Positions 1-12,671 are shown, counted from the first letter of the stretch. The stretch: DNA of 64,000 bases from Myxococcota bacterium (GCA_039028615.1 JBCCHT010000029.1:32001-96000); one strand, 5' to 3'. Notes: generated by a model not told the origin, from the letters alone. A program made the numbers and translations.

Positions 1-931
1 ATTGCCGGGGGGAGACGCCGACTTCACGCCGAAACGCGCGGGAGAAGCCGGCGGGGTCGGTGTAGCCCACGCGTTGGCCGATTTCGCTGAGGTTGAGGGG
101 GGTCTGGGCGAGCATGCGCTTGGCCTCTTCGATACGGCACAGCTGGATGTAGCGGATCGGCGACTCGCAGGTCTTTTCCGAGAACAGCTGGGCGAACGCG
201 GCGCGCGACATGCCGACCTTGCTGGCGAGGGTGGCGACCGTCCATGGGGCGTCCAGAGCGGCGTGCACCAGGCCCAACGCACGGCCGATCTGCGGGTGGG
301 TCACCGCGGCGAGCAACCCCGAGTCGGTGCCGACCCTCTCGAAGTGCAGCCGCAGCACGCCCAAGAAAGCGAGCTCGGCGAGTCGAGACACCATGCCCTC
401 CGTGCCCAGCCGAGTTTCGCTGGACTCCTGCACGAGGCCATCGATGAACGCCCGGATGCCCGCGGTGGCCTCGTCCGCGCGTACGACCACCACCATCGGG
501 AGCAGGCCGAGCAGCGGCGCGGCGGAGACTTCCTGAAAACGAAAGGCGCAGCAGGTGATGGCGGTGCGGGGGCCCGTGCCGCCGCGGCGAACCGAGCACC
601 GCGGGCCGCCCCGTTGGTCGGGGACGTCAATCCGAGGCGCGGCCAGGGCTCGCGCGCTGCTGGTGATCTCGTAGGTGCCCCCGCGCGGCAGCAGGACCAC
701 GTCTCCGGCCTCCAGCGGGATGGGCTGAGGCTGCTGGGGCGTACGCACGTAGGCCTTGCCGCGGCCGATGACGTGCAGCACGGGGTCGGCCGCCTCGGAG
801 TTCATCACCCGCCACGGTGCGCCCAGATCCATGGTGGACAACACCACGCCGCGCAGGCCCACCTGGCGGATCAACGCGCTGAGTACGTCGTGGCTGTCTT
901 GCCAGTCGAAGAGTCGGTCGTCGTCGCTCAT
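1..931 (-). CDS. AraC-family transcriptional regulator with N-terminal cupin domain (RclR-like), 3' end runs off the window
   Basis: Missing from the ORF track because it has no stop in the window. Manual translation from ATG at 931 gives MSDDDRLFDW...LSALIRQVGLRG...APWR...LEAGDVVLLPRG...HPQIGRALGLVH...PWTVATLASKVGMSRAAFAQLF...SPIRY...LSEIGQRVGYTDPAGFSRAFRREVGVSP, a typical AraC double HTH. Confidence 0.9.
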   Translation of the reverse strand, partial: MSDDDRLFDWQDSHDVLSALIRQVGLRGVVLSTMDLGAPWRVMNSEAADPVLHVIGRGKAYVRTPQQPQPIPLEAGDVVLLPRGGTYEITSSARALAAPRIDVPDQRGGPRCSVRRGGTGPRTAITCCAFRFQEVSAAPLLGLLPMVVVVRADEATAGIRAFIDGLVQESSETRLGTEGMVSRLAELAFLGVLRLHFERVGTDSGLLAAVTHPQIGRALGLVHAALDAPWTVATLASKVGMSRAAFAQLFSEKTCESPIRYIQLCRIEEAKRMLAQTPLNLSEIGQRVGYTDPAGFSRAFRREVGVSPRQ

Positions 932-946
932 CCGTCGCTGCCTCGC

Positions 947-1522
947 TCAGAATCGAAACAGGGGGCCCGTGCTGAGCTCGATTTCATGCTGCCAGCCGTG
1001 AGGCTCGGGCAAGGCAGTGTAGTCGACTTCCGCCAGCACCCCAACGCGAGGGTGCAGCCACAGGTAGCTGCCCGCCGTGCCCAGGGCACCCACCGCGAAG
1101 AAGTCGTCCTCCCCCACCCCGAAGGTGAAGGCCGCCCCCGCCCCCACGTAAGGGTCGAACACGTGGCTGACGTGGAAGGGCTTTTTGAACAACACGTCGA
1201 GCGGGACATGGGCGGAGCGTCGCTCGTCGGTGATCAGCACGTTGGCGGACAGCTCCAGCTCGAGCCAGCCTCGCACCAGCGTTCGCTCGTAGAACAGCCC
1301 CACGCCGCCCTGTCCTTCGACGTGCGAGGGCTCGCCGTGCTCGACCGCCACCACCCCGATCGCCTTCAAGCCGACGAGGTTGTGCCAATGGAGCGGGCAC
1401 CCGACGTCGTGTTCGGCATGGGCGACATCGTGAAGCTCGGGCTCCGAGCGCGGCTCGGCTGCGGCGGGACCGGCGAGCACGGCCCACAGGGGCATCACGA
1501 ACGGAGAGGAGGACACTGGCAT
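947..1522 (-). CDS. Putative outer-membrane beta-barrel protein with His-rich N-terminus
   Basis: Signal-like N-terminus, amphipathic beta strands (PYVGAG, LELELSA, VLAEVDY) and a C-terminal aromatic residue (PLFRF). Co-oriented between the P460 gene and the AraC gene. Confidence 0.6.
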   Translation of the reverse strand: MPVSSSPFVMPLWAVLAGPAAAEPRSEPELHDVAHAEHDVGCPLHWHNLVGLKAIGVVAVEHGEPSHVEGQGGVGLFYERTLVRGWLELELSANVLITDERRSAHVPLDVLFKKPFHVSHVFDPYVGAGAAFTFGVGEDDFFAVGALGTAGSYLWLHPRVGVLAEVDYTALPEPHGWQHEIELSTGPLFRF

Positions 1523-1597: not shown

Positions 1598-3310
1598 CTA
1601 TTGCAAGGGCCAACCCGAGAGGATCAGGTCCTTGCTCCCCACCGAATGGCAGCCGATACAGCCGGGAATCCCGTTGCCCGCGGCCGGTAGCGCCCCGGGG
1701 TCCGTGGGGCTGGTTACCTCGTACCAAAACCAGTTCTTGCCGCCCTGTGATTGGGCACCGGTCTTGGCCATGACCGCCCACCCGGTCAGCGTGCCGTCGC
1801 CACCGAACATCTCCTTGACCGCGATCGAGTCCTTGGGATGCTCGGTGTTGCCCGCTTCGAGCGACGTGGCGAGCGTCTCGTTGTAGAACACGCGCACGGG
1901 GACCGAGGGCGTGGTGTGAGGGCCTCGCCCGGGATGTGTGCCCGCCTGCTTGGCCGACCACTCGGCGTAGGGCTTGCCCGTCAGCCACGCGTGCAGATCG
2001 TTGCGGTGCAGGGGCATGTCTCCCGCCGCCTTCGGGTGACCGACGGTGGGCTGCCACTGGTTGTCGGTGCTGAGCGGCTTGCCCTTGGCCTGGCCCATCG
2101 CGTCGCGCAGCACGGGGTAGTACTGCGTGAACACGAAATCGTGCTCGGCCGAGCCCTGGTGGCAGGCGTTGCACGCCGAGGTCGGGAACGCCTTGGCCTC
2201 CGATTTGACCGCGCCGCCGCCCGGGTTGGTGAAGCTGAAGTAGGCCCAGTTGCCCGGCTCGTCGGGGAAGTGCTCGGCGCTCTTGATCGTCGCCTCGAGC
2301 CCGATGAACTCGCCCATGAAGTAGCCGTTGCCCGAGACCGCCGCCTTGGATCCGACCTCGACCAACTCCTTGATGAGGATGGTGCCGTCACGGAACTCGC
2401 CGGTCCGCTCGAGGTGATCGTAGCTGGCCGGATCGATGTACACGCTGTGGAACTCGGGGAACGGCGCCTTGCCCCCGTTGCGATCGTTGGGCGTGAGCGG
2501 CTCGCCGACGAACACCCACTCGCGATAGCCCCGGGGGCGCTGTAAGACGCCGCCCTCGATGGTGAAGGGCTCGCTGCCCTCGGCCCGTTCCTCGGTCGCC
2601 GCCCCTCGCAGCACGGGGTAGTACTGCGTGAACACGAAGTCCTGGGCCGCGCTGTTGGCATGGCACGAGTTGCAGTCCTTGGTGGGAAAGGGCTTGGCCG
2701 TCTTGCTCAAGCCGCCGCCGCTGGGGTTGGTGAAGCTGTAGTAGCCCCAGTTGCCGGGCTCGTCGGGGAAGTGCTCGGCGCTCTTGATGGTGGCTTCCAG
2801 GCCGATGTAGTCGCCCATGAAAAAGCCCTTGCCCGAGGCGGCCGAGGTGGCCCCGACCGCGTGCAGTTCCTTGACGAGGATGGTGCCGTCGGGGAACGAG
2901 CCCGTGGTGCGGTAGGCCTCGTAGCTGTCGGGGTCGATGTAGACGCTGTGGAACTCCGGGAACGGAGCCTTGCCGTCGTTCATCTCGTTGGGGGTGACGG
3001 GCTCGCCGACGAAGACCCACTTGCGGTAGCCCTCGGGGCGCGTGAGCGTCCCCCCCTGCCCGATCTCGAAGGCGGGGGCGGGCTTGGCCGGGTCCGCCTG
3101 GGCGGCTGGAGCCGCGCCGTCACCCGGAGAGCTGGTGCCGTTGCCGTCGACCCCGTTGCAGGCCCCGAGCCCCGAAACTGCCAGTAGGCCGAGCAGCCAG
3201 GGCCCTCGCGGGGTGAGCGTGCTCCACCGACGGGCGGCCACCGTGTGGGCGGAGCGGGTGTTCCGTGGACCTGTCCGCCGTGGCGTCGAAATGCGCTTGT
3301 CTGTGTCCAT
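1598..3310 (-). CDS. Lipoprotein with three cytochrome P460-family (beta-sheet cytochrome) domains
   Basis: Lipobox LGAC. Two near-identical domains P.GYR.WVFVG.P.TPN..N.GKAPFPEFHSVYIDP...DGTIL.KEL...GLEATIK...PGNW...CxxCH...FVFTQYYPVL, then a shorter third domain (VRVFYN...IAVKEM...WAVMAK...WFWYE...CIGCH). Start placed at ATG 3310; the track starts at 3355. Confidence 0.9.
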   Translation of the reverse strand: MDTDKRISTPRRTGPRNTRSAHTVAARRWSTLTPRGPWLLGLLAVSGLGACNGVDGNGTSSPGDGAAPAAQADPAKPAPAFEIGQGGTLTRPEGYRKWVFVGEPVTPNEMNDGKAPFPEFHSVYIDPDSYEAYRTTGSFPDGTILVKELHAVGATSAASGKGFFMGDYIGLEATIKSAEHFPDEPGNWGYYSFTNPSGGGLSKTAKPFPTKDCNSCHANSAAQDFVFTQYYPVLRGAATEERAEGSEPFTIEGGVLQRPRGYREWVFVGEPLTPNDRNGGKAPFPEFHSVYIDPASYDHLERTGEFRDGTILIKELVEVGSKAAVSGNGYFMGEFIGLEATIKSAEHFPDEPGNWAYFSFTNPGGGAVKSEAKAFPTSACNACHQGSAEHDFVFTQYYPVLRDAMGQAKGKPLSTDNQWQPTVGHPKAAGDMPLHRNDLHAWLTGKPYAEWSAKQAGTHPGRGPHTTPSVPVRVFYNETLATSLEAGNTEHPKDSIAVKEMFGGDGTLTGWAVMAKTGAQSQGGKNWFWYEVTSPTDPGALPAAGNGIPGCIGCHSVGSKDLILSGWPLQ

Positions 3311-3532: not shown

Positions 3533-3985
3533 CTACTGCTCGTCTTCGAAGGCGCTCGAAAATTGACCGTAGCCTTCGGCCTCGAGATCTTCGGCCGCCA
3601 CGAAGCGTAGAGAGGCCGAATTGATGCAGTAGCGCATGCCCGTCTCGTCTCGTGGCCCGTCGGGGAAGACGTGGCCGAGGTGGCTGTCGCCGTGGGTCGA
3701 ACGAACCTCGGTGCGGACCATGCCGTGGGTCGAGTCGCGGAGCTCCTGGACATTCGATCCGTCGCCGATGGGGCGAGTGAAGCTCGGCCAGCCCGAGCCG
3801 GAGTCGTACTTGTCCTTCGACGAAAACAGCGGCTCGCCGGAGACCACGTCGACATAGATGCCGGCTTCCTTGTGGTCCCAGTACTCGTTGGCGAAGGCGC
3901 GCTCGGTCCCGTTGTGCTGGGTGATGCGGCGTTGCTCGGCGGTCAGGTTCTGGACCGCCTCATCGGTCTTCTCGTAGTCGCTCAT
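3533..3985 (-). CDS. msrB: Peptide-methionine (R)-S-oxide reductase MsrB
   Basis: Motifs [46 protein letters not shown] and RYCINS. Lacks the zinc CxxC pairs. Confidence 0.97.
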
Positions 3986-4013: not shown

Positions 4014-4646
4014 TTAGCCCAGGCCGAGACTCCGCAAGGAGCCCTTGCCGGCCAGGTTCACGCCCAGTTGGTCGAGCTCGCGCTCGAGGGATTGCGGGGC
4101 CCAGTGGCCAGCCGCGTAGGCATTGAGTTTGGCGGCCGCGGTCGAGGCTAGCAGCTCGGGCTCCGAGTCGAAGTTCGCTAGCAGCGCCTCGAACAGCGCC
4201 GGGTTCCGCCGTAGTCGCCACTTTTGGTGATAGGCCTCGGCCGGGTGGAACCGAGCGCCCACCACGATGGCGGTGGCCACGGGGCGCCCGTGGTCCTCAC
4301 TCAGGCGGTCGGCAACGGCCTGAGCGGCGTGGCGCTGCCCTTCGTCGGCGCAGAAAAGCTCCGCTCGGTACTGGGAGCGCGACGACGAAAACGGGTCGTG
4401 GCTGCCCCAAAACCGCTCGAGCAGGTCTTCGTAGGCCAGCACGGCGGGGTCGAAGGTGAGCTGGACCGCTTCGGCGTGGTCACCGATGGTGCGGTAGGTC
4501 GGCGCGGGGGTCGTGCCCCCGGCGTAGCCGACCTCGGTATGGAGTACTCCGCGAAGACCCCCGAACCGGGAGTCGGGCCCCCAAAATCACCCCAGGGCGA
4601 AGGTGAAGTGCTCGGTGGGCGCGGCGGAGAGGATGGGCTCGGACAT
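4014..4646 (-). CDS. msrA: Peptide-methionine (S)-S-oxide reductase MsrA, selenocysteine form (in-frame TGA at 4587-4589)
   Basis: Track ORFs 4587..4898 and 4014..4442 are in the same frame. Read through, they give [19 protein letters not shown](TGA)-FWGPDSRFG...VGYAGG...PTYR..GDHAEAV...QYRA...[10 protein letters not shown], with TGA at the Cys of the GCFWG active site. Confidence 0.9.
4556..4574 (-). promoter_or_regulatory. Putative bacterial SECIS hairpin in msrA mRNA
   Basis: mRNA GACUCCC-GGUUC-GGGGGUC forms a 7-8 bp stem starting 12 nt after the UGA, with a small apical loop that begins with G. This matches the general bacterial SECIS geometry. Confidence 0.7.
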
Positions 4647-8250: not shown

Positions 8251-8823
8251 CTACGCCTCGCTCACGCGGCGCAGGGTATTGGCATCGACGTGGTGAAAGG
8301 GCTCGTCCTTGTTCGGCAGCTTCATCACCGTGTCGGACTCGTAGTGGAACGAGCCGTCGTCCTCGATCCGAACCCCGAAGCGGTACTCGATGGTCTGGAA
8401 CTGCTCGTCGAGGAAGGGGTTGGCGCAGATGCCGTAGACGAGCGAGCCACGGGTCGCCTTCAGCTCGAAGCTCCGCGCGTCGGGCTCGACGGTACCGCCC
8501 GCGATCACGGTGATGCCCCGGGGCACCACGAAGCAGCGGGTGACCTGGCGGTTCTTGGCGTCCCACATCCAGTAGCCGAGTTCTTCGTGGAAGGGCGCGT
8601 CGGCGCCCAGGCGCCAGGCGGTGGTCGAGTAGCGCAGGCCGTAGAGCACCTGCTCGTGGTTGTCGACGCGACCGGTGGGCACGAGGGTCAAGCGCTCGCG
8701 ATAGTCGCTATTGGCGATGCTGCGATCGGGAACGGCCGGGGCCGCATCGGCGCCCTTGTCTCCCTCCCACACTCCGACCAGCGGAGCCAGAGGACCCAGG
8801 TTGGCGATGTCGTCGATGCTCAT
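8251..8823 (-). CDS. Nitrobindin/THAP4-like haem-binding beta-barrel (DUF1794-like)
   Basis: LGPLAPLVGVWEGDKG...YRERL...LYGLRY...FHEELGYW.WD...PRG...FHHVD.NTL. Start placed at ATG 8823. Confidence 0.8.
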   Translation of the reverse strand: MSIDDIANLGPLAPLVGVWEGDKGADAAPAVPDRSIANSDYRERLTLVPTGRVDNHEQVLYGLRYSTTAWRLGADAPFHEELGYWMWDAKNRQVTRCFVVPRGITVIAGGTVEPDARSFELKATRGSLVYGICANPFLDEQFQTIEYRFGVRIEDDGSFHYESDTVMKLPNKDEPFHHVDANTLRRVSEA

Positions 8824-8843
8824 CGTCGGCAGTGTAGACGCCT

Positions 8844-9407
8844 TCAGCCTGGTTCGCGCTGCAGCCCCAGCAACATCCACGTATTGTCACCGTGGTTGTC
8901 GATGTGGAACTGGATCTCGGCGCCTTGGGGGACCTCGGCGGGCAGCTCGATGAACTCGGTGATGAGCCCCGCGCCCTGCGGGATGGGCACCCGATGCTCC
9001 CAGACCGGCTCCCCGTCGATGGCGAGCGCCAAAAAGCCCTCGGCGGGTGCCTCCGCCACCAGCGGGAAGTGCCACAGGTCGAAGCGAATGACCTCGTCGA
9101 GGCGGATGTCGGCCAGCGCAGGCTGGGCGACGGTGATCCCGTCGCACAGCGTGGTGTCGACCTTGAAGGTCGTCGTGCCGGCCAGGGGCTCGACGTAATA
9201 GCCCTCCCCTGCTTCGCACACGCCCCCGGGGACGCGGCGCTCGGGCCATGCGTCGTCCGCCGCGGGGACCGGCGTCCACTGGCTCAGATCGACGAGGCCC
9301 GCGACGTCTCGCGGGGGCAAGGGCGCCGGCTCGGGGTCATCGCAGGACACGAGCCCGATCGCGGCGACGATGAGCCACCCCGCCTGCTGCTCGTTTCGCC
9401 CCGGCAC
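8844..9407 (-). CDS. Hypothetical lipoprotein
   Basis: Lipobox LVSC, beta-rich body and a C-terminal FHIDNHG.NTW motif. Co-oriented within the 11306-6615 gene run. Confidence 0.65.
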   Translation of the reverse strand: MPGRNEQQAGWLIVAAIGLVSCDDPEPAPLPPRDVAGLVDLSQWTPVPAADDAWPERRVPGGVCEAGEGYYVEPLAGTTTFKVDTTLCDGITVAQPALADIRLDEVIRFDLWHFPLVAEAPAEGFLALAIDGEPVWEHRVPIPQGAGLITEFIELPAEVPQGAEIQFHIDNHGDNTWMLLGLQREPG

Positions 9408-9476: not shown

Positions 9477-11306
9477 TCACAGCGACTCGAGGTAGGCGAT
9501 CAACTCGTCGATCTCGTCCTCGGGCGGCGTGGGCTGGTCTGCCCGGGTGCGCGATAGCATGTCCAGCACCGCGCCGCGCAGGTCCTCGGCGCGACCGTCG
9601 TGCATGTACGGCGGGTGCATCGCCACGCCCCGCAGCGGGGGGACCTGCAGCGAGAATTCGTGCCCGAGCCACACGTTGTCGGGGCCGCCGTCGAGCGCCT
9701 CGCCAAAGTGACAGTTATTGCATCCCCACGCGGCGAACGAGGCCGCGCCACGCAATGCCGCCGGGTCGACGAGCGAACGCTGGGGCCGAGGCGTCTGAAT
9801 GGAGAACATCCAGGCCTCGAGTGCGTCCACCCGCTCGAGCGACTGGTGGCGGCCGCCCATGCGCCCGGCGTGGATCTGGTCCATCAGCTCGACCGCGTCG
9901 CTGAGGCTGCCGTCCCAGTGGAAGGGCTCGGTGTCGCGGAGCCCCACGTCGAGCGAGGGCGTGTGGCGAACCCCCATTTCGTCGAAGACCCACAGGTGCC
10001 CGTCGTCGCCGCCCTCGGGGTGACAGCTCGCGCACGAGATGCCGCCGCCCGCGTCGCGATGGAACAGGTCGTGTCCGGTGTCCGCACGGCTATTGCCCGC
10101 GAGCGGAATGGCCAGCGTGGGAACCTCGGGGCGCCAGGGATCGATGCGCACCAACCCGGCCGGCTCCCGGCTCTGGGCCACGATTCGGCCCTGGGGGTCG
10201 AAGGTCACGGCCACATACTGGCCCGGCCCGACCGGCAGCGGCTCGGGCACGTCACACCTCGGGCGCTGAGCCGACGTGAACGACTGCGGGTCGACCCACA
10301 CCACGCCGCTGACCGGCGTGCGGTCGTCGTTGCGACCGGCCACCGCCACCGCGATCGAGTAGTCCCCCGGCGAGACGGCGACGTCCACCGCGAGGACCGT
10401 CTTGCCCAGCAGCGGCGAGGTGCGAAGGTCCAGCGCGCCCGAGCCCCGCGTGAGCACCGGGTTGACCACGGGCGCACAGGGATCGGGACCGCCTCCGTAG
10501 CCCCCGTCGCGACCGCCGTCGGGCACATTCGCGTGCAGGTCCACCGCTTGGTCGGTCGAGGCCTGATGGAGCATCAGCCAGTCTCCGTCGGGGGTCCCCA
10601 CCGTGCGCCACGCCGTGTTCGGGCGCAGGTGGCCGGGCGAGCCGTTGTGCGGTCGCAGGTCGGACGGCGCGTGCTCGTCGAGCAGGGTACCGTCGTGGTC
10701 GACGTGCAGCACGTGGGCCGAGCGGAAGCGAGTGACGGTGAGCCCCTCGTCGGTGACGACCACGTCCCGCAGGTCCGGCATCAACCGCACGCGCCGGGTC
10801 GATGCGTCGCCCTCCACGGACAGGCTCACCAGGTCTCCGCCCGCGCACGCCACATGCAGACGATCGGCGTCCTCGTCGTACGCGATGCCCCGCGGGTTGC
10901 TGCAGACCTCGCGCTCCCGCACGACGCGGCCCGCCAGCGGATCGATCTCGACGACCGTGCCCCCGCGGCGCGTGACCACGTGGGCTCGCCCCGCGGCATC
11001 GGCCACCACGCGGCCGGGCTCGTCTCCGGGGCTCAGCTCGATGATGTGAGTGCGACGGCCCTCGAGTAGATCCGCCACATACACCAGGTCTCGATCCGGG
11101 TCGGCGGCCACCGCCGTGTCGCCTCGGTTCATGACGGCCAAGGTGCCCCCGCTGATCGGCGGTGGCGGATCCAGCCGTCGCACTACGGGGCGATCGTCGA
11201 CCCCTCGGTTCGCGTCGTTCGGTGGCGGGTCGATCACCGAAAAGTCTCCCTGGCACCCGATAACGGTCGCCAGCAGGGAAATCCACCGCCAATGGTCAGT
11301 TTGCAT
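9477..11306 (-). CDS. Lipoprotein with YVTN/YncE-like beta-propeller fused to a di-haem cytochrome c peroxidase/MauG-like domain
   Basis: Lipobox VIGC after ATG 11306 and propeller repeats (AVAADPDRD.V, PRGIAYD). Haem motifs CASCH and CNNCH, plus RHTPSL...PFHWDG and VPPLRG...PPYMHDG. Confidence 0.8.
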   Translation of the reverse strand: MQTDHWRWISLLATVIGCQGDFSVIDPPPNDANRGVDDRPVVRRLDPPPPISGGTLAVMNRGDTAVAADPDRDLVYVADLLEGRRTHIIELSPGDEPGRVVADAAGRAHVVTRRGGTVVEIDPLAGRVVREREVCSNPRGIAYDEDADRLHVACAGGDLVSLSVEGDASTRRVRLMPDLRDVVVTDEGLTVTRFRSAHVLHVDHDGTLLDEHAPSDLRPHNGSPGHLRPNTAWRTVGTPDGDWLMLHQASTDQAVDLHANVPDGGRDGGYGGGPDPCAPVVNPVLTRGSGALDLRTSPLLGKTVLAVDVAVSPGDYSIAVAVAGRNDDRTPVSGVVWVDPQSFTSAQRPRCDVPEPLPVGPGQYVAVTFDPQGRIVAQSREPAGLVRIDPWRPEVPTLAIPLAGNSRADTGHDLFHRDAGGGISCASCHPEGGDDGHLWVFDEMGVRHTPSLDVGLRDTEPFHWDGSLSDAVELMDQIHAGRMGGRHQSLERVDALEAWMFSIQTPRPQRSLVDPAALRGAASFAAWGCNNCHFGEALDGGPDNVWLGHEFSLQVPPLRGVAMHPPYMHDGRAEDLRGAVLDMLSRTRADQPTPPEDEIDELIAYLESL

Positions 11307-11468
11307 AGGCCCTACTCCATGTCCCACCGGGCGCGGTCTCGCCCCGGATTCAGCGGTCTCACCCCCCAACTGTGGCAAGGTTTCCCGCACCGATTCGTTC
11401 GCCCCATCGTCGTCCCGTGCGGTGACCTGACGGGCCGGCGGCAGGCGGCGTATCCTGGGGTCCACCTG

Positions 11469-12671
11469 GTGTCCCGGTCTCGCTACGTTCCGTCGCCCCT
11501 CGTCGCTGCGCTGGCCCTGTGCCTGGCGCCCTTCGGTTGTCGCTTCAAGAGCGTGAGCCCGGTGTCCGCGTCGATCGAGGCCACCGCCGTGCACTCGGAT
11601 GCGATCGATCTCTCGGAGTCACTGTGTCTGCTGGGCACCGCGTTGGCCTCGGACGCCCCCGCGTGCGACGACCAGAGCGCGCGGGTCGAAGCGCTGCAGC
11701 TGGCGGTGGGGCAGCTGTCGAGCTACGGCGGGCGGCTGTCCAAGCTCTCGGGGATCCGCCCCGTCAACCTCGGGCCCGCGCCGGGGGCCGTGATCGGGCT
11801 GGGCGAAGCCGTGTCGGGCAGCAAGCTCGACGGCATCGAGCGCCGAGGCATCCAGGCCGCTTCCAAGATCCTCGCCAACGTCATCACCACCGCGGTCAAG
11901 CGCAAGGCGTTGCGGACCGCGGTCCACGATACCGATCGCTCGGTTCAGTGCCTGGCGTGGCGGGGCTACGAAGCCACCGAGGTCTGGCGTCGCGAGGTGG
12001 CCCGCATCGCCGAGTCGGGGACCAAGGCCGAAGCCCTCGACATCGCGCTCGGGGCTCCCCCGCGCCCCGCCGAGCCTCCGCCCCCGCCTCCCGCGGCCGT
12101 CGAGCCTTCGCCGACGCCTCCGTCCAAACATCCGCTCGCCGAGCGTGTGGCCGAGGTCGAACAAAAACAGGCCGAGCTCGAAGGCGCCCTCCACGAGGCT
12201 GAACAAACGCGGGCCCGAGCCGCGCGCAAGCAAGCCAAGACCGATCGCCGCGCGCTCGAGAGCCAGCGCCTGGCCCTACGCTCGGCCCAGGTCATCGCCG
12301 CCGAGCACGATCGGCGCCTTGCCGCGCTGCAGCGTGGCCTGTGGTCGGTCGCCGTCTCGCACAACCACCTCGCCTGCAACCGCGATCGACTCGGCACCAC
12401 CAAGGATCGCGCGCTCCAGGCAGAGCTCGGTCAGCTCGTGGCCTGCGTGCTCGAGCGAGACTCGATGGACAGCGATCGCTCGTCCGGCTGCCGCTCCGTG
12501 CTCGCGCGCGCCGAGTGGCTGCGCGCCCACGCCTGCGAGCAGCTGCACCAGCTCGACGACGCGCAGCAGCCCGTGCTCGACGACGACGGCAATCCCGTGC
12601 CGGCCGCCCCCCGATGCTCCCCTCCCCCGCCTCCTCCATCCACCCCTGAGCAGCCCCCGACAACACCATGA
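11469..12671 (+). CDS. Hypothetical helical lipoprotein
   Basis: GTG 11469 gives a signal peptide ending APFGC, followed by a coiled-coil-like body with Pro-rich linkers. Stop overlaps the next ATG (ATGA). Confidence 0.65.
   Translation: MSRSRYVPSPLVAALALCLAPFGCRFKSVSPVSASIEATAVHSDAIDLSESLCLLGTALASDAPACDDQSARVEALQLAVGQLSSYGGRLSKLSGIRPVNLGPAPGAVIGLGEAVSGSKLDGIERRGIQAASKILANVITTAVKRKALRTAVHDTDRSVQCLAWRGYEATEVWRREVARIAESGTKAEALDIALGAPPRPAEPPPPPPAAVEPSPTPPSKHPLAERVAEVEQKQAELEGALHEAEQTRARAARKQAKTDRRALESQRLALRSAQVIAAEHDRRLAALQRGLWSVAVSHNHLACNRDRLGTTKDRALQAELGQLVACVLERDSMDSDRSSGCRSVLARAEWLRAHACEQLHQLDDAQQPVLDDDGNPVPAAPRCSPPPPPPSTPEQPPTTP

Follow-up and report, generated by a model that had tools for sequence, protein, structure and literature searches.

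We describe here a predicted lipoprotein from a Myxococcota bacterium in which two cytochrome P460 domains that look catalytically complete (D1 and D2, type P) are joined in one chain to a divergent third haem domain (D3, type X). This P-P-X architecture recurs and is apparently undescribed. In the reading that we prefer, to which we give a probability of a little under one half (about 0.45), D1 and D2 would form an envelope-anchored single-chain P460 dimer that oxidises external hydroxylamine (NH2OH) and binds NO, and a tethered, His-capped X would accept electrons.

A predicted three-domain haem lipoprotein

The gene lies in a window of 64,000 nucleotides, by which we mean the whole stretch of DNA analysed; positions are counted from its first letter (Table 1). 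The earlier note, made from the sequence alone, had described a lipoprotein with three CxxCH motifs, and the minus-strand open reading frame, the lipobox and CxxCH at residues 213, 380 and 551 of the 570-residue protein are all present. Further motifs occur at residues 114 and 281 (KAPF), 146 and 313 (VKEL and IKEL), 170 and 337 (GLEA), 498 (VKEM) and 511 (WAVMAK). Among the query and the best 120 of 558 matches, a simple regular expression recovers a lipobox-like pattern in 24 of 37 triple-domain (P-P-X) and 63 of 83 double-domain (P-X) proteins. No sigma-70-like promoter was found at the locus, where terminators occur at chance level.

Table 1. Features of the P-P-X locus, with positions in the window and residue numbers in the protein.
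Feature	Positions	Strand	Remarks
Cupin_6-AraC regulator	1..931	-	323 aa in full, runs past the left end of the window
His-rich predicted outer-membrane barrel	947..1522	-	weak, E 0.07; directly behind the P460 gene
P460-P460-X lipoprotein gene	1598..3310	-	570 aa, ATG at 3310
D3 (X), divergent P460-family domain, aa 431-570	1601..2020	-	His459, GPH His465, Lys499, Ala512, CIGCH 551-555
D2-D3 tether, variable length	2021..2101	-	CxxCH spacing
D2, canonical P460 domain, aa 254-403	2102..2551	-	Phe284, His288, Lys314, Glu339, CNACH 380-384
D1-D2 linker, about 14-17 aa	2552..2602	-	CxxCH spacing
D1, canonical P460 domain, aa 87-236	2603..3052	-	Phe117 cap, His121, Lys147, Glu172, CNSCH 213-217
Predicted lipoprotein signal	3158..3310	-	lipobox LGA-C51 at 3158-3169 (LGAC, aa 48-51)
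msrB	3533..3985	-	the genome's only msrB match; ends about 220 bp upstream of the P460 gene
msrA, in-frame TGA at the catalytic Cys	4014..4646	-	

Two canonical P460 domains

By every sequence test, D1 and D2 are members of the known P460 family. Each carries a C-terminal CxxCH haem motif, and the Pfam model PF16694 detects two stretches in the whole protein, D1 and D2 scoring 100.8 and 93.3 bits against a cut-off of 27. The Pfam check proposed in the earlier note thus upheld D1 and D2 and failed for D3, which by itself stays below the cut-off. The whole protein matches the P460s of Nitrosomonas europaea (NeP460) and AL212 at E about 1e-54, the predicted models match the fold of both (Foldseek E 2e-17), and the D2 model superposes on 6e17_A with a VIA Z of 19.3 and an rmsd of 3.5 over 156 aligned residues.

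Oxidation of NH2OH by Nitrosomonas P460 requires a cross-link lysine, a distal carboxylate (Glu) and a capping residue (Phe; PMC11928373). In AL212 P460, Glu alone restores activity (PMC6457333), and the capping Phe favours formation of the cross-link (PMC10411619). The earlier note held that D1 and D2 retain all three residues, and KAPF, VKEL/IKEL and GLEA are indeed found at the expected sites, Lys147 and Lys314 aligning with the cross-link position in the VKEL motif of NeP460 (Lys70). In the query and the best 120 of 558 matches, the cross-link-site Lys occurs in 157/157 P domains, and the distal Glu, the capping Phe and a His at the Arg44 site, as in AL212, each occur in 156/157. Judged by these residues, D1 and D2 look catalytically complete.

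Age and authenticity of the duplication

D1 and D2 had been read in the earlier note as a recent tandem duplication with near-identical blocks of DNA. The 501-nt offset stands, being confirmed by repeat families, and so do the short blocks: 2107-2137 equals 2608-2638 over 31 nt, and the longest identical run between the two domains is 32 nt. 'Recent' does not stand. Over the whole domain, D1 and D2 share 105/148 amino acids (71%) and 339/444 nucleotides (76%), and 19 of 50 four-fold sites within identical codons differ. Moreover, the query D1 shares 89% and the query D2 87% of its residues with its counterpart in homologue P0002, against only 71% between the two. A recent origin was rejected on this ground, each domain being closer to its counterparts elsewhere than to its partner. 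Within the set of best matches, 60 of the 74 P domains of triples find their nearest neighbour at the corresponding position of a different protein, and eight find it in the other copy of their own protein (up to 91% identity). In P0007, P0013, P0018 and P0036, the two P domains are mutually nearest (84-91%), which suggests independent younger duplications or gene conversion in these proteins.

The earlier note had also allowed that sequencing reads might expose an assembly artefact. Logan contigs from a single run (a marine metagenome, possibly the source sample itself) tile the whole gene with no differing letters and no joint that skips a copy. One contig, 2273-2636, spans the D1-D2 junction at a depth of 10.8, compared with 12.7-14.3 in the flanks. 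Apart from the identical block of 31-32 nt, which could have come from misassembly or from a neutral duplication of very recent date, the evidence leaves such an origin a negligible probability: the DNA copies are 24% divergent, 36 homologues have the same layout and the junction is covered at single-copy depth. The assembly artefact was rejected on these three grounds.

The divergent third domain

By homology and predicted fold, D3 is a member of the P460/c'-beta superfamily. Only about 20% identical to the canonical D1, it scores 19.3 bits against PF16694 (E 0.0016, under the 27-bit cut-off), and the same model matches 48 of 50 X domains at E<=0.01. Aligned with HHalign, X matches the D1 profile with a probability of 73% (E 3e-5). 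The best PDB matches of the X profile are c'-beta and P460, both weak (E 0.1-0.3; c'-beta 0.1-0.17), and 28 of 30 matches of X in the ESM Atlas fall in P460 clusters, with a best score of 0.95. In the AlphaFold model, the order of strands and helices in D3 is that of P460; a fold search with the D2+X model returned matches that were all taken up by D2. A global HHalign comparison of 11 stand-alone X rows with the P profile gave no match (probability 0.05%).

The earlier note had stated that D3 keeps the Lys and is without the Glu, and this is borne out by VKEM and WAVMAK, Ala512 lying at the Glu site. Among the query and the best 120 of 558 matches, Lys499 is present in 120/120 X domains and the Glu site is Ala in 119/120 and Gly in 1/120; His465 of the GPH motif occurs in 120/120, His459 in 119/120 and His491 in 115/120. 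D3 further has a Val at the His/Arg44 site and a short beta3-beta4 loop. The absence of a distal Glu/Asp places X outside the NH2OH-oxidising P460s, and the Lys at the cross-link site places it outside the cytochromes c'-beta. Assignment of D3 to c'-beta was rejected on the strength of this Lys, found in all 120 X domains.

The invariant His465 probably occupies the capping position. A global profile alignment (HHalign) sets GPH against APF, and thus His465 at the cap, with a probability of only 8%. The spacer from there to the first strand has three residues, as in P460, in 8 of 50 X rows and six residues in 36 of 50. A His cap would be new, because all solved P460/c'-beta members that PMC11928373 covers have Phe or Arg.

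X does not need P, since it also occurs alone: the host genome contains three close and one distant stand-alone X, and such genes are common in relatives. A word-based search with D3 alone recovered only two proteins among 21 candidates and must be insensitive, because stand-alone X genes plainly exist in these relatives. The host genome (G000) has seven more P460-family or X-like ORFs (C18:103405, C1:748870, C72:25105, C6:142191, C28:33154, C1:206110 and C33:105497), mostly predicted lipoproteins with acidic linkers; the 759-aa protein encoded at C33:105497 is P460-like in its N-terminal domain and carries another CxxCH further on the chain.

Distribution of the architecture

The query and the best 120 of 558 matches comprise 37 P-P-X proteins, 83 P-X proteins and one truncated P-P. 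The domain-architecture search suggested in the earlier note, once run, thus recovered the triple layout in 36 other proteins from several phyla among these best 120 of 558 matches, and uniqueness to the host genome was rejected. Triples or members of their clusters come from Kofleriaceae, Planctomycetota, Arenicella, Acidobacteria, Krumholzibacteriota and a 'Deltaproteobacteria bacterium'. In 41 genomes of the host family and class, the triple is present in two and stand-alone X genes are common. Among 7999 candidates, a search for longer fusions (999-2850 aa) brought none to light, which is weak evidence.

At 80 loci from GTDB genomes, we found 29 P-X genes, 14 P-X genes followed by a separate canonical P, three triples, one P adjoining a separate X, one P-X with a split X match and five P alone; at the remaining 27, P adjoins a different divergent paralogue. 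The 14 loci with P-X and a separate P all belong, by record title or genus, to Flavobacteriaceae, with a median P identity within the locus of 82%. Of the 28 genomes whose P-X locus is not a triple, 19 have only a single canonical P match. We infer that the triple unites in one chain what Flavobacteria encode as the 'P-X plus P' pair and what is elsewhere a (P-X)2 homodimer. On a tree of X domains (FastTree only; 37 triples and 42 of the 83 doubles), triples and doubles interleave, with eight changes, at least two of them forced by strongly supported branches. The extra P has therefore been gained or lost more than once.

At the 27 loci with the other paralogue, mostly gammaproteobacterial, the gene immediately behind a canonical P460 encodes a divergent protein with the motif GDASGFHDVY, and a Cupin_6-AraC gene is often found upstream. 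In 15 inspected paralogue sequences (L043, L047, L052-L055, L060, L062, L064, L067, L070, L071, L074, L078 and L080), the KEL Lys is mostly kept and Phe stands at the Glu site. Here, independently of P-X, a complete P460 is coupled for a second time to a partner that lacks the Glu.

Probable pairing of the domains

In the query and the best 120 of 558 matches, the distance from CxxCH to CxxCH between D1 and D2 is 161-170 residues in 37/37 triples, and that between P and X is 170-199 in triples and 170-211 in doubles. The P460 beta3-beta4 loop extends to the haem of the second monomer (PMC11928373). In the same set (query and best 120 of 558), 138 of 157 P domains have a 20-residue loop and 18 do not match the pattern, and in 120/120 X domains the loop measures 7-9 residues. 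AlphaFold models reached a pLDDT of 83.3 and a pTM of 0.70 for the three domains (37 sequences), and a pLDDT of 86.7 and a pTM of 0.65 for D2+X (90 sequences). We read the two pTM values, against yardsticks that are inferred and not a computed control, as consistent with one fixed pair without confident packing of D2 on X. D1 and D2 likely fold together as an intramolecular P460 pseudo-dimer, since both keep the long loop that reaches the partner haem and X is without it. The simplest scheme would be a P:P dimer with appended X, realised as (P-X)2, as P plus P-X, or in one chain.

Alternatively, the extra P might be a gene-dosage repeat, repeatedly gained and lost, with pairing between chains or between D2 and X in place of an intramolecular pair. 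The interleaving of triples and doubles on the X tree would suit this explanation, as would the eight of 74 triple P domains that are nearest to their own protein's other copy (up to 91%), the fact that P-X without a second P is the commonest form, a pTM of 0.65 for D2+X, compatible with some contact, and a D1-D2 linker of only about 14-17 residues. We nevertheless consider it unlikely: the D1-D2 spacing stays constant over divergent lineages (161-170), X lacks the cross-subunit loop, and the query clade keeps its D1s and D2s as separate lineages in a quick tree of all 74 triple and 28 of the 83 double P domains.

Gene neighbourhood

Along the minus strand, the gene order in the window is msrA, msrB, P-P-X, the His-rich barrel and the Cupin_6-AraC regulator. 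The link to msrB extends beyond the window: msrB lies within about 5 kb of 10 of 48 X-containing loci, compared with 0.23 expected from the msrB count and size of each genome. These ten loci belong to Flavobacteriaceae (six), Alphaproteobacteria (two), Gemmatimonadota (one) and a deltaproteobacterial MAG (one), and amount to about four or five independent cases because the six Flavobacteriaceae are kin. The other 38 of the 48 loci, including the three other GTDB triples, have no msrB nearby, and no msr genes were found near those triples or a same-genus triple, which speaks against a fixed link.

The deltaproteobacterial MAG has the same gene set as the window (L046), with msrB-msrA, P-X, a barrel homologous to that of the window (38%) and Cupin_6-AraC. 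The whole cassette (L046:846-9571: SnoaL, AraC, msrBA, P-X, barrel, DUF2721 and UDG) is flanked by two tyrosine-integrase-like ORFs, which suggests that it is mobile. The flavobacterial P-X plus P loci carry a different small barrel in a similar place; it falls into a separate set, and the window barrel matches it at no better than E 0.008.

In the msrA gene beside P-P-X, TGA takes exactly the place of the catalytic Cys codon (G-U-F-W), a stem-loop is predicted behind it, and the genome has selA and tRNA-Sec; the neighbouring MsrA probably contains selenocysteine. Bacterial Sec-MsrA is already known. In the range of 5-8 kb from the P460 gene, the minus strand further encodes a THAP4/nitrobindin-like haem beta-barrel (8251-8880) and a protein with a propeller and a di-haem (CCP/MauG-like) part (9477-11594).

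Over all 80 loci, the neighbours include Cupin_6-AraC (26), msrB (18), msrA (13), UDG (12), glutaredoxin-TrxB (9) and truncated globin (9). A truncated globin flanks 9 of the 48 X-containing loci; truncated globins are known as NO dioxygenases. A bacterial-like globin gene stands beside P-X or P-P-X at L002, L024, L026, L029, L032, L035, L039, L040 and L044. The best NCBIfam match of the adjacent regulator is the chlorine sensor RclR (NF040475); RclR orthology was rejected, the score being 89.8 bits where 400 are needed.

These neighbours raise the possibility that the main function is defence against oxidants (peroxide, hypohalous acid or a haloamine such as NH2Cl or NH2Br), with X as a peroxidase-like, His-capped domain and a P460 substrate other than free NH2OH. 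Such a role would account for the oxidant-repair genes around the 80 loci (msrB, msrA, glutaredoxin-TrxB and UDG) and for the conserved cysteines of the adjacent Cupin_6-AraC family (C127 in 27/27, C112 in 21/27), and RclR is after all the regulator's best match. Many hosts are marine, and NeCP-beta, a polar-capped family member, has peroxidase-like activity (PMC11928373). We regard this explanation as possible, although the odds are against it. The RclR score is far below its cut-off, a Lys cross-link (or Lys) prevents peroxidase activity (PMC11928373) and X has Lys in 120/120 domains, the truncated globins point to nitrogen oxides, and no link between P460 and methionine sulfoxide was found in the titles and abstract openings of the papers listed for the two.

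Possible function

The host genome (12.3 Mb, 68% GC, 96.7% complete) has cytochrome c maturation genes and two globin-like genes. In agreement with the non-nitrifying host proposed in the earlier note, no match to amo or hao was found in it, the search controls being likewise silent. There was no match over the cut-off for nosZ, nirK or nrfA, and none for hcp or NO synthase. The genome has a single COX1-family gene and hence no separate nor. The detoxification role that the earlier note had considered is plausible, and P-P-X likely helps to relieve the cell envelope of reactive nitrogen or oxidant stress.

In the preferred reading, the lipoprotein anchor would place D1-D2-X at the cell envelope, where D1 and D2, as a single-chain P460 dimer, would oxidise NH2OH and bind NO. 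The substrate would come from outside the cell, as the searches of the genome gave no amo, hao, nirK, nor, hcp or NO synthase. X, on its tether, would be a His-capped accessory haem that takes electrons from D1/D2, and the physiological role would be envelope defence together with MsrA/MsrB. P460 turnover requires an external oxidant. A relay role needs X to differ, because a Lys-cross-linked haem, with a potential near -400 mV (PMC11928373), is a poor electron acceptor. NH2OH may also not be the real substrate, given that the Kd of NeP460 for it is 9 mM (PMC6457333).

A broader proposal, which we hold to be improbable, is that X forms a class of its own among P460-fold haems, marked by a distal His, and that P-X and P-P-X are self-contained multi-haem enzymes in which electrons from NH2OH or a haloamine would pass from the P460 sites to the X haem. 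On this proposal, these proteins, in msrA/msrB stress cassettes of marine heterotrophs, would be an unrecognised NH2OH/NO sink and a source of N2O beyond the nitrifiers, and would account for the presence of P460 in non-nitrifiers. Even less probable, in our view, is a third NH2OH-oxidising or NO-binding site in X, with His465 replacing Glu as the distal base in a multi-site enzyme without electron relay. The invariant Lys499, the existence of stand-alone X proteins and the Asp and His near the substrate in HAO active sites (PMC6457333) would agree with such a site, but Ala at the Glu site is the pattern of inactive AL212 P460, where activity is restored by Glu only (PMC6457333).

The role of P460 in non-nitrifiers is named as open (PMC6457333, PMC11928373). 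The recurring fusion of a complete P460 with a Glu-less partner offers a handle on it, as do the probable His-capped pocket, absent from solved structures, and the strong msrA/msrB link, with culturable hosts in Aquimarina, Winogradskyella, Leptobacterium and Roseibacillus. In a natural single-chain P460 dimer, moreover, each haem could be mutated separately. Should these proteins prove active, marine heterotrophs would join the possible sources of N2O.

Comparison with known systems

In the largely open-access literature searched, we found no fused or tandem P460 and no report of an RclR/Msr-type cluster with a P460. The 2025 P460 review contains no mention of fusion, fused, domain, diheme or lipoprotein, and the sole 'tandem' in the available text of PMC6427953 concerns separate genes. 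The P460s described there and elsewhere in the accessible literature are single-domain proteins with Phe or Arg caps (PMC6457333, PMC11928373).

The setting of the gene resembles that of RclR-type and Msr-based oxidant-defence clusters, which we take to combine, as here, a Cupin_6-AraC regulator with conserved Cys and envelope redox genes, msrA and msrB. It differs in that the regulator of this locus is far under the RclR cut-off.

Among haem proteins, D1 and D2 are closest to N. europaea CytL (2je2/2je3) and the A131E variant of AL212 P460 (6e0x), with which they share the fold (Z 19), about 50% identity, CxxCH, the cross-link Lys, the distal Glu, the Phe cap and the long beta3-beta4 loop; the His at the Arg44 site is shared with AL212 P460. 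CytL and AL212 P460 are, however, single-domain soluble homodimers of nitrifiers without a fused third haem domain, whereas P-P-X is a three-domain predicted lipoprotein of a host without an amo/hao match. D3 resembles wild-type AL212 P460 (6amg, the inactive 'halfway-house') in keeping the Lys with Ala at the Glu site. Unlike 6amg, it has no long loop, carries Val at the His/Arg44 site and has the invariant GPH His probably where AL212 has its Phe76 cap. Finally, the cytochromes c'-beta of M. capsulatus (6hih), T. thermophilus (7ead) and N. europaea (7s5o) share with X the short beta3-beta4 loop and the absence of a distal carboxylate. In contrast to X, they have Phe or Met in place of the cross-link Lys and are capped by Phe or Arg, where X has Lys and, probably, His.
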